Origin: a virus
Virus record (IMG/VR): IMGVR_UViG_3300045988_126619
Span: 1 to 64,000 of that record
Reading direction: 5' to 3' (one strand)
DNA length: 64,000 nucleotides
The notes below the pieces were generated by a model. That model had not been told where the DNA came from. It searched no databases and saw nothing but the letters and a program-made list of their open reading frames with translations. Shown one piece after another: positions 46,204 through 47,111 of this stretch (position 1 is its first letter; each line of letters opens with the position of its first letter). Position numbers and translations under genes: made by a program.

Positions 46204-47111
46204 ATATTATTATCTTTGAAGGCTTTTAGATTCTATCCTTCTTCTTGACTTTCAGAAGACTTACTGTCTATCTCCCTTATCCACTAACTCATGCTAGTAT
46301 CAAGAAATGCCTGCTATTTTATATACCGTTAGCTTTTACGGTCTACTAATATACTACTCTACAGTTCGCATTATACTTGCCTTGCGAGCAATTAAGGATT
46401 GGCTAAATCCAAATACGCTGTTCCTTATAAAGTAATTAAGTCCTTGCGAGAACTCCATTACACTTTGTTACATCTCTGCCAAAGTATTAAGACACTTTCG
46501 TATATTAGGAAGAAGAATTTTCGCTTTAGTTATTTGTATTTCAAATAAAATATGATATCCTCAATCATCACTTAAATCTGCTATATTCTTCTTAACTTTT
46601 CCAAACAGAAGTCACATCTTCTTAGTTGTTTCCTTGCCTTTTGAGCAAAGCTATACAACAGCGACTTCGATGCTTTCACTCAATTTATAAGTTACTAACG
46701 GTTCTATAAGATACTTTAGGATACTCCCTATTTTTCTTATACAACTGGTTATCGCACTTGTGTAAATTTCACTCGTACTATTTAACCTTACACTTTAGAT
46801 TTTCCATTTCACTAGTTTAGCGTGAACTATCCAATTGCTAGTTGGAAGATTTCATTCTTTGGTTATTCCATTACTCTCTTGTCATTCCTAGCTTATAGGA
46901 CTTTACCATATTGCTGACTATATTTTCACTTAACCAATATGATAAACATTTAAATCTTGTGTATTGCTTGAATTGACCATAAATGGCGAATGGTTGTTAG
47001 CCACCCTTTACATATATTACTATATGCTATCTGTGTCAAGCCACAATACGCACCTATATTAGTGTACCAGTTACTTTTATTTTAAAGAGTTAAAGTAACA
47101 AACTTTCTTCT
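46204..47111 (-). ncRNA. Candidate large structured ncRNA (~0.9 kb) embedded in the tRNA cluster. Strand is assumed from context.
   Basis: It abuts tRNA-Asn and tRNA-Glu exactly and has no ORF of 60 aa or more in any frame. It is visibly richer in G+C than its surroundings and has many local helices (e.g. GTTACTTT..AAAGTAAC, GGATT..AATCC, ACCGT..ACGGT). Confidence 0.45.

Follow-up and report, generated by a model that had tools for sequence, protein, structure and literature searches.

What occupies a 908-nucleotide (nt) block without protein-coding genes in a phage genome otherwise packed with them? The question is raised by positions 46204-47111 of a 64,000-nt stretch of viral DNA, hereafter called the window (positions 1 to 64,000 of IMG/VR record IMGVR_UViG_3300045988_126619), which comes from a ~159-kb SPbeta-like phage genome. 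A reading made from the sequence alone (the sequence-only reading) proposed that the block encodes a large structured RNA in a GOLLD- or ROOL-like context. Using Rfam's alignment, nhmmer profiles, and explicit counts of base pairs, we conclude that the block is very probably a complete, divergent gene for GOLLD RNA (Rfam family RF02032) on the minus strand. The proposal is thereby narrowed to GOLLD, by an Rfam match in the 3' half (E=1.5e-29) and a profile match in the 5' half (E=4e-28), and the RNA adds a divergent new member to an established family and is not a new class.

Open reading frames (ORFs) of at least 60 amino acids (aa) cover 88% of the window, and its ORF list contains none that overlaps positions 45731-47803, as the sequence-only reading had pointed out. 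This 2073-nt interval is the largest ORF-free gap of the window; the second-largest internal gap measures 375 nt. According to ARAGORN and Rfam, the block is precisely the 908-nt interval separating tRNA-Glu from tRNA-Asn (tRNA, transfer RNA), again as claimed earlier. Its GC content (32.7%) is above that of the window (28.4%) and of the flanking genes (24 to 28%), which bears out that it is less AT-rich than its neighbors. Length (908 nt), origin (phage genes all around), and placement (between tRNAs of a five-tRNA cluster) are those of GOLLD genes. The minus strand folds more stably than its shuffles (z = -4.3), but the plus strand folds nearly as well (z = -3.85), so folding energy by itself is weak evidence.

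Relationship of the block to GOLLD RNAs

The elements recognized in the block are given below. Helix and loop names in the 3' domain follow the published numbering as we ourselves transferred it to the Rfam structure.

46204-47111, minus strand: putative whole GOLLD RNA gene, 908 nt from tRNA-Glu to tRNA-Asn, with putative transcript ends
47070-47099, minus strand: 5' leader hairpin, GUUACUUU...AAAGUAAC
46672-47052, minus strand: GOLLD 5' domain, outside the Rfam model, from nhmmer profile, covariation, and helix mapping
46966-47041, minus strand: invariant three-hairpin junction, closed by GCUUGA/UCAAGC, with a GUAA (GNRA) hairpin at 47027-47010
46220-46669, minus strand: conserved GOLLD 3' domain, RF02032 positions 1-416
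46510-46606, minus strand: linker J13/15, variable and single stranded, with a 23-nt insertion relative to the model
46345-46509, minus strand: P17 (CCUAAUAUAC / GUAUAUUAGU) and the enclosed P18, P19-20, and P21 (with P21a and P21b)
46442-46450, minus strand: loop of the P20 hairpin (L20), CUCGCAAGG
46399-46406, minus strand: loop of the P21a hairpin (L21a), UUAGCCAA, in the center of which is a GC dinucleotide (46403-46402)
46380-46388, minus strand: loop of the P21b hairpin (L21b), a second copy of CUCGCAAGG
46325-46342, minus strand: pseudoknot of ACCGU 46342-46338 (J17/22) with ACGGU 46329-46325 (loop L22)

The sequence-only reading had suggested a search with Rfam models and a covariation analysis with homologous regions. 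In a permissive Rfam scan of positions 45700-47850, RF02032, which models the conserved 3' domain, aligned end to end (positions 1-416 of 416) with 110.1 bits, whereas the ROOL, HEARO, OLE, and intron models remained unmatched. Parsing of this alignment showed that the window has canonical pairing at 88 of the 98 consensus pairs, 37 being the same as in the consensus, 9 changed on one side, and 42 changed on both, and that all helices of RF02032 are present (14/14). We then projected the window's 3' structure on A3, an unguided alignment of 18 GOLLD 3' domains. The proportion of paired cells was 70.9%, compared with 52.4% in shuffles and at most 46% with slid partners, and the covariation score was 0.50 versus at most 0.17 in the controls.

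All the short complementary pairs listed by the sequence-only reading, together with the doubled CCTTGCGAG box, lie where it had placed them, and most correspond to real helices or loops. Its ACCGT/ACGGT pair is the L22 x J17/22 pseudoknot known from the cryo-electron microscopy structure of GOLLD (PMC12286853); across the 18 sequences, the pseudoknot columns are 98.9% paired and 5 of 5 pairs vary on both sides. GGATT/AATCC is P21a, the first of the hairpins inside P21, and P20 and P21b each have one of the two CCTTGCGAG boxes as their loop, which reads CUCGCAAGG on the RNA strand. All 18 GOLLDs share the UCGCAA core of L20 without change. L21b consists of.GGC. loops in most relatives and of.CGCAAGG-related loops in L040, L126, L003, and L004 (L numbers designate our loci). 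A GC/CG dinucleotide in L21a has been linked to a symmetric loop-loop contact (Kretsch et al., PMC12286853). Judged from sequence only and under our own loop naming, the candidate subunit-contact loops of the window are the UCGCAA core, the central GC of L21a, and P21b. Together, these alignments and pair counts show that the 3' half comprises the entire conserved GOLLD 3' domain together with its L22 pseudoknot.

Two further observations concern the linker J13/15, an element described in PMC12286853 and PMC12990946. A partner for L20 was sought there and dropped: UCGC/GCGA complementarity is present, but the box differs in L003, L004, and the Rfam consensus. Neither ARAGORN nor Rfam found a tRNA embedded in the window's linker. 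In L004, a tRNA-like match (38.9 bits) at 8202-8270 lies inside the linker of the GOLLD at 8137-8588 and exemplifies a published variant of GOLLD with an embedded tRNA.

The 5' half lies outside the Rfam model and was assessed with relatives collected by sequence patterns. A pattern of three conserved boxes of the 3' domain led to 14 viral contigs, all with GOLLD at 159-218 bits; a first scan of genome contigs with these boxes gave no match. A profile of the commonest of the 14, when run on the window, revealed a conserved element in the 5' half. The motif of this element (GGCTTGACA N45-75 TCAATTCAAGC), used as a pattern, matched 35 stretches of viral contigs, 27 of genome contigs, and 74 of metagenome contigs. 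Many matches in genome and metagenome contigs occurred by chance, and an nhmmer profile served as the filter: 80 loci with a GOLLD match remained among all those fetched, with GOLLD in 1 of the 27 genome stretches. L039 was rejected as a chance match of the motif. When five representative motif loci were scanned whole with Rfam, all five had a GOLLD 3' domain (163-206 bits) 340-420 nt downstream of the motif. Together with the window, the 61 loci whose matches were nearly full length formed 15 clusters at 95% identity.

An independent profile, built from 14 other GOLLD 5' domains without the window and L040, had a single match in the window, at 47050-46693 on the minus strand (E=4e-28), and a profile including L040 extended the match to 47052-46672 (E=8.7e-41). 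The window's 442-nt 5' half could be aligned over its whole length with 15 other GOLLD 5' domains using MAFFT (alignment A2). RNAalifold predicted a consensus fold of 87 pairs for A2, 61 of them with compensatory changes. Paired cells amounted to 95.8%, compared with 78.0% in shuffles and at most 40% with slid partners, and the covariation score was 0.554 versus 0.21 and at most 0.10, respectively; these controls are generous, since the fold had been predicted from the very alignment on which it was scored.

Before any adjustment of the MAFFT register, 65 of the 87 pairs are intact in the window, and the failing pairs are concentrated in a single region in which the window and L040 are off register by one or two columns. 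When small register shifts were permitted, the window kept 85/87 pairs and the shuffled controls kept 76.5 +/- 2.1, with a maximum of 82, so this flexible-register test is only mildly discriminating. The compensations rescued in this way include ACAC/GUGU instead of CUGA/UCAG, AGAUU/AAUCU, and AUCAUAUU/AAUAUGGU. We located 19 of the 20 consensus helix segments in the window, and folding of the single sequence, which is free of any alignment, recovered several of the consensus helices. Upstream of the 5' domain, the leader hairpin, which the sequence-only reading had noticed as the GTTACTTT/AAAGTAAC pair, is unconserved in sequence, but a hairpin is seen at the same place in L026, L033, and L036 when the alignment is read by eye. 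Together, the profiles and the covariation, which supports the fold in both halves (18 3' domains and the 16-sequence A2 alignment), show that the 5' half is homologous lengthwise to other GOLLD 5' domains, with which it shares a predicted, covariation-supported fold.

One of the loci, L030, has a GOLLD 5' domain at 4446-4812 followed by unrelated sequence, without a 3' domain. This could reflect a truncation, a recombination event, or an assembly artifact.

Points against the assignment and rival explanations

Several points weigh against a complete GOLLD gene. The match to RF02032 is below the curated gathering cut-off (110.1 versus 150 bits), a composition bias costs it 26.5 bits, and Rfam run at gathering thresholds reported nothing in the block, so a default cmsearch or cmscan would miss it. 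The CUCAAAAGG-loop hairpin of the 5' domain (A2 columns 203-219) is absent in the window and the L040 family. A sigma-70 promoter scan was not above chance (19 sites versus 14.6 expected). The encoded CCA of tRNA-Glu abuts GOLLD base 1, which casts doubt on a straightforward release of the 5' end by RNase Z. Finally, the nearest relatives (L040, L050, L105, and L130) are ~74% identical over ~310 nt, neither the block nor the 40-52 kb region has a BLAST match among GenBank phage records, and positions 45731-47803 are 100% identical in two independent metagenome assemblies; with no close relative and other copies that are all identical, lineage-specific selection is unmeasurable. As for the Rfam score, we attribute its low value to divergence of the primary sequence, AT-rich composition, and the 23-nt linker insertion, not to loss of structure. 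The 150-bit gathering score is an operational cut-off rather than a biological feature, and the E value and the end-to-end alignment are decisive.

Some of these points would also suit a decaying GOLLD relic, no longer selected and kept as a spacer of the tRNA cluster. A relic could explain the subthreshold score, the loss of one 5'-domain hairpin, the UUUA loop found in the window where other GOLLDs mostly have a GNRA loop, and the 10 broken pairs among the 98 of the 3' domain. Drift, however, would not produce the double changes by which 42 of the 88 kept 3' pairs and most 5' helices are maintained, and every column without variation across the 18 GOLLDs is, by definition, preserved in the window. 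The hairpin is also missing from the L040 family, in which GOLLD scores of 163-164 bits exceed the Rfam cut-off, which argues for a lineage variant rather than decay. The occurrence of the same sequence in two independent assemblies also speaks against a relic, which we regard as distinctly unlikely.

That the block belongs to another or a new class of large RNA (ROOL-like, a group I or II intron, or similar) with a partial resemblance to GOLLD is less probable still. The sequence-only reading could not separate GOLLD from ROOL, and the 5' half has no Rfam model. Nevertheless, GOLLD-specific profiles match each of the two halves from end to end, and the permissive Rfam scan yielded, besides GOLLD, only SNORA18 at E=5.3 in the block. 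The ROOL model had no match in the window at its gathering threshold and none in the block scan at E values up to 10. ROOL, itself a large phage or prophage RNA found near tRNA islands and forming an RNA-only cage (PMC12286853), is unrelated to the window's RNA in sequence and fold. A degraded protein-coding gene or an unstructured intergenic spacer, for which the absence of ORFs is the sole point in favor, can be dismissed as hardly credible given that the longest ORF within the block has 49 aa, that base-pair covariation is specific to RNA, and that the block matches covariance and profile models of a noncoding RNA.

Comparison with solved GOLLDs and predicted maturation

We compared the window's GOLLD RNA with env-38 GOLLD, an 833-nt RNA that forms a D7-symmetric 14-mer cage of 380 Å (PMC12286853). 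Both have a two-domain layout with a conserved 3' domain, of which the window has all Rfam helices, and they share the L22 x J17/22 pseudoknot, the UCGCAA loop core, and the GUGGAUAA and AAUCU.A boxes. Further common features are a variable linker, a length above 800 nt, a phage origin, and adjacency to tRNAs. By eye, the window's 5' junction GGCUUGACA...AAUUCAAGC resembles GGGCUUUGACA...AAUUCAAUGC of env-38 (supplement sequence, Kretsch et al. 2025); the text copy of env-38 has 815 nt, not 833 nt, so residue numbers are not transferable. In contrast, the window differs from env-38 and RF02032 by its very divergent sequence (no BLAST match; 110 bits against the 150-bit cut-off), the 23-nt linker insertion, L21b being a second copy of L20, and the interior of the 5' junction.

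The S. agalactiae GOLLD (Streptococcus agalactiae), from the same family, is a 700-nt RNA that forms a dodecamer (PMC12990946). It lacks P9, P11a-c, and P21b, whereas the window's RNA, ~200 nt longer, retains P21b as well as the three-hairpin junction. Loss of peripheral helices is tolerated in the S. agalactiae RNA and alters the number of cage subunits (PMC12990946). Closer to the window, the gut-phage GOLLD clusters (L026, L001, L033, L036, and others) have the same 5' domain fold, and L026 and L033 also share its tRNA / ~910 nt / tRNA layout. Like the window, the L040 family has the UUUA loop and lacks the CUCAAAAGG hairpin, but it carries a 50-nt insertion in the 5' domain that is absent from the window.

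GOLLD genes with tRNA genes on both sides have already been described (PMC6582537, PMC12286853). The tRNA genes of the window, detected by ARAGORN and Rfam, are as follows.

47321-47413, minus strand: tRNA-Ser
47203-47276, minus strand: tRNA-Gly
47112-47186, minus strand: tRNA-Glu (UUC) with encoded CCA, directly adjoining the GOLLD 5' end
46129-46203, minus strand: tRNA-Asn (GUU), directly adjoining the 3' end of GOLLD, with the presumed RNase P site at the tRNA's own 5' end
45880-45955, minus strand: tRNA-Tyr
43470-43544: tRNA-Trp, the sixth tRNA gene

The first five are clustered around the block, all on the minus strand. Among the relatives, ARAGORN found tRNA-Met / 911-917 nt / tRNA-Arg in the L026 cluster and tRNA-Pro / 919 nt / tRNA-Asn in L033; overall, the tRNA-to-tRNA gap holding GOLLD measures 908 nt in the window and 911-921 nt in L026 and L033. 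In L028 and L002, a tRNA was found only upstream; in the L040 family, there was none. On the minus strand, just two terminator-like sites were seen, at 47537-47520, upstream of tRNA-Ser, and at 45409-45387, after a 101-aa ORF. The lack of such a site from tRNA-Ser to 45409-45387 is consistent with a single transcript spanning the tRNAs and GOLLD.

GOLLD would then be cotranscribed with the tRNAs as one precursor, and cleavage by RNase P at tRNA-Asn would generate its 3' end. The 5' end may come from 3' processing of tRNA-Glu or from another endonuclease. Of the release by RNase P and RNase Z envisaged in the sequence-only reading, the RNase P part thus fits the 3' end, while the 5' end is less clear because the CCA of tRNA-Glu abuts GOLLD. 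CCA blocks RNase Z in Bacillus-type systems. Both tRNA-Glu and tRNA-Asn of the window end in an encoded CCA, whereas the tRNAs flanking GOLLD in L026, L033, and L002 have none and would therefore be RNase Z substrates. At the window's 5' end, another endonuclease or a lasting tRNA-GOLLD fusion is possible. By analogy with the family, the RNA would then fold into its two domains and self-assemble, probably late in infection, into a hollow homo-oligomeric cage of dihedral symmetry. The full-length GOLLDs solved are 12-mers or 14-mers in which the 5' domains form caps and the 3' domains rings, with the linker pointing inward, and the subunit number depends on peripheral helices (PMC12286853, PMC12990946). 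GOLLD expression rises during phage-induced lysis (PMC12286853, PMC6582537), some GOLLDs carry tRNAs in the linker, and a ribosome pull-down has been reported (PMC12286853). This pull-down and the placement in tRNA clusters suggest a function connected with tRNA or translation.

Reading from the sequence, we also noted an encoded CCA in tRNA-Gly and tRNA-Ser and none in tRNA-Tyr. Two tRNA-like mini-elements on the minus strand were called by neither ARAGORN nor Rfam. The one at 46036-46092 has a 7-bp acceptor stem, a T-arm (GAGG-UUCGAUU-CCUU), one additional hairpin, and no D arm; the other, at 45784-45830, is an acceptor plus T-arm minihelix (GGUUCAAUUCC). They fold as expected, with unexceptional energies (z = -1.7 and -0.6, respectively), and may represent remnants of tRNAs or handles for processing. 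The leader upstream of tRNA-Ser (47414-47560, minus strand) contains two strong hairpins (z = -5.4), the first of which is the terminator-like site at 47537-47520; the ORF-free stretch in which it lies (47414-47803) is 390 nt long.

Genomic setting and significance for the GOLLD family

Two protein-coding genes frame the locus.

48234-51122, minus strand: gene for a YonO-like single-subunit RNA polymerase, upstream of GOLLD on the same strand
43843-45297, minus strand: metallo-beta-lactamase / beta-CASP / RMMBL gene, downstream on the same strand, with domains that mark the RNase J / CPSF-type nuclease family

The polymerase is 34-37% identical to those of SPbeta, phi3T, Perkons, and Clostridium phage D-1873. 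Many GOLLD loci have the same order on one strand: a YonO-like polymerase gene, 0.6-2 kb, GOLLD, 0.4-1.5 kb, and a beta-CASP gene. The divergent clusters L013, L026, L101, L138, and L145 likewise have a beta-CASP / RMMBL gene (~30% protein identity) downstream of GOLLD. A weak match to Anti-Pycsar_Apyc1 is also listed for the nuclease gene in the 43843-45297 region. Between the YonO-like gene and the tRNA cluster lies an ORF of 157 aa (47804-48277, minus strand), which overlaps the 3' end of the polymerase gene and has no Pfam match; homologues with 39% identity are found upstream of GOLLD in L040, L050, and L105.

Through the neighboring proteins, we found related phages (L015-L023). No GOLLD was detected by the Rfam scan of L015-L020 and no match to the GOLLD nhmmer profile in L021-L023, so these loci are of no use for covariation. 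Since such GOLLD-less relatives keep the polymerase and beta-CASP genes, the arrangement reflects a conserved genome order and is no proof of a functional link.

GOLLD-less phages with YonO and beta-CASP genes hold other phage-associated RNAs, drum and skipping-rope, in the same neighborhood. In L016, skipping-rope (66.5 bits) and drum (63.8 bits) both exceed their cut-offs (at 7984-8062 and 8792-8901); in L017 and L020, drum scores 40.2 bits at 13489-13598, slightly under its 43-bit cut-off. Other RNAs were seen elsewhere: L036, a rumen phage contig, has a group I intron at 3523-3744 on the minus strand (50.9 bits), ~1.5 kb upstream of GOLLD on the same strand, and the window itself carries a RAGATH-18 RNA (RF03064) at 52785-52850 on the minus strand (71.4 bits versus a 44.9-bit cut-off), between the ORFs at 51899-52732 and 52897-54156.

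Within the GOLLD assignment, a more specific and tentative possibility, which we consider rather doubtful, is that the window's RNA and the L040 family represent a structural sub-lineage of their own, perhaps with another subunit number or geometry, and that the RNA may be joined to tRNA-Glu as a tethered-tRNA cage. The traits in question are the loss of one hairpin of the 5' domain (the cap) and the replacement of a mostly GNRA loop by UUUA, both in the window and the L040 family. In addition, L21b of the window is an exact second copy of L20 (CUCGCAAGG), and L040 has related.CGCAA. loops. If this were true, the cage of the sub-lineage might differ from the solved 12-mer and 14-mer. As the encoded CCA next to GOLLD base 1 should resist RNase Z, the RNA may remain covalently attached to tRNA-Glu; the cage would then carry tethered tRNAs, possibly acted on by the neighboring phage beta-CASP RNase.

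GOLLD RNAs are among the largest and least understood RNAs of bacteria and phages, and the structure of a GOLLD cage was solved in 2025 (PMC12286853). The present locus shows that the Rfam cut-off overlooks divergent, AT-rich members of the family. Although the 5' domain is usually termed variable, its core is strongly conserved and covaries, and it contains an invariant junction motif (GGCUUGACA...UCAAUUCAAGC), which proved an efficient handle for finding GOLLD relatives. Finally, our results reveal a group of GOLLDs at a fixed site in SPbeta-like phages, bounded by tRNAs and lying between the genes for a YonO-type polymerase and a beta-CASP RNase. This site provides a defined genetic setting for work on GOLLD processing and function.

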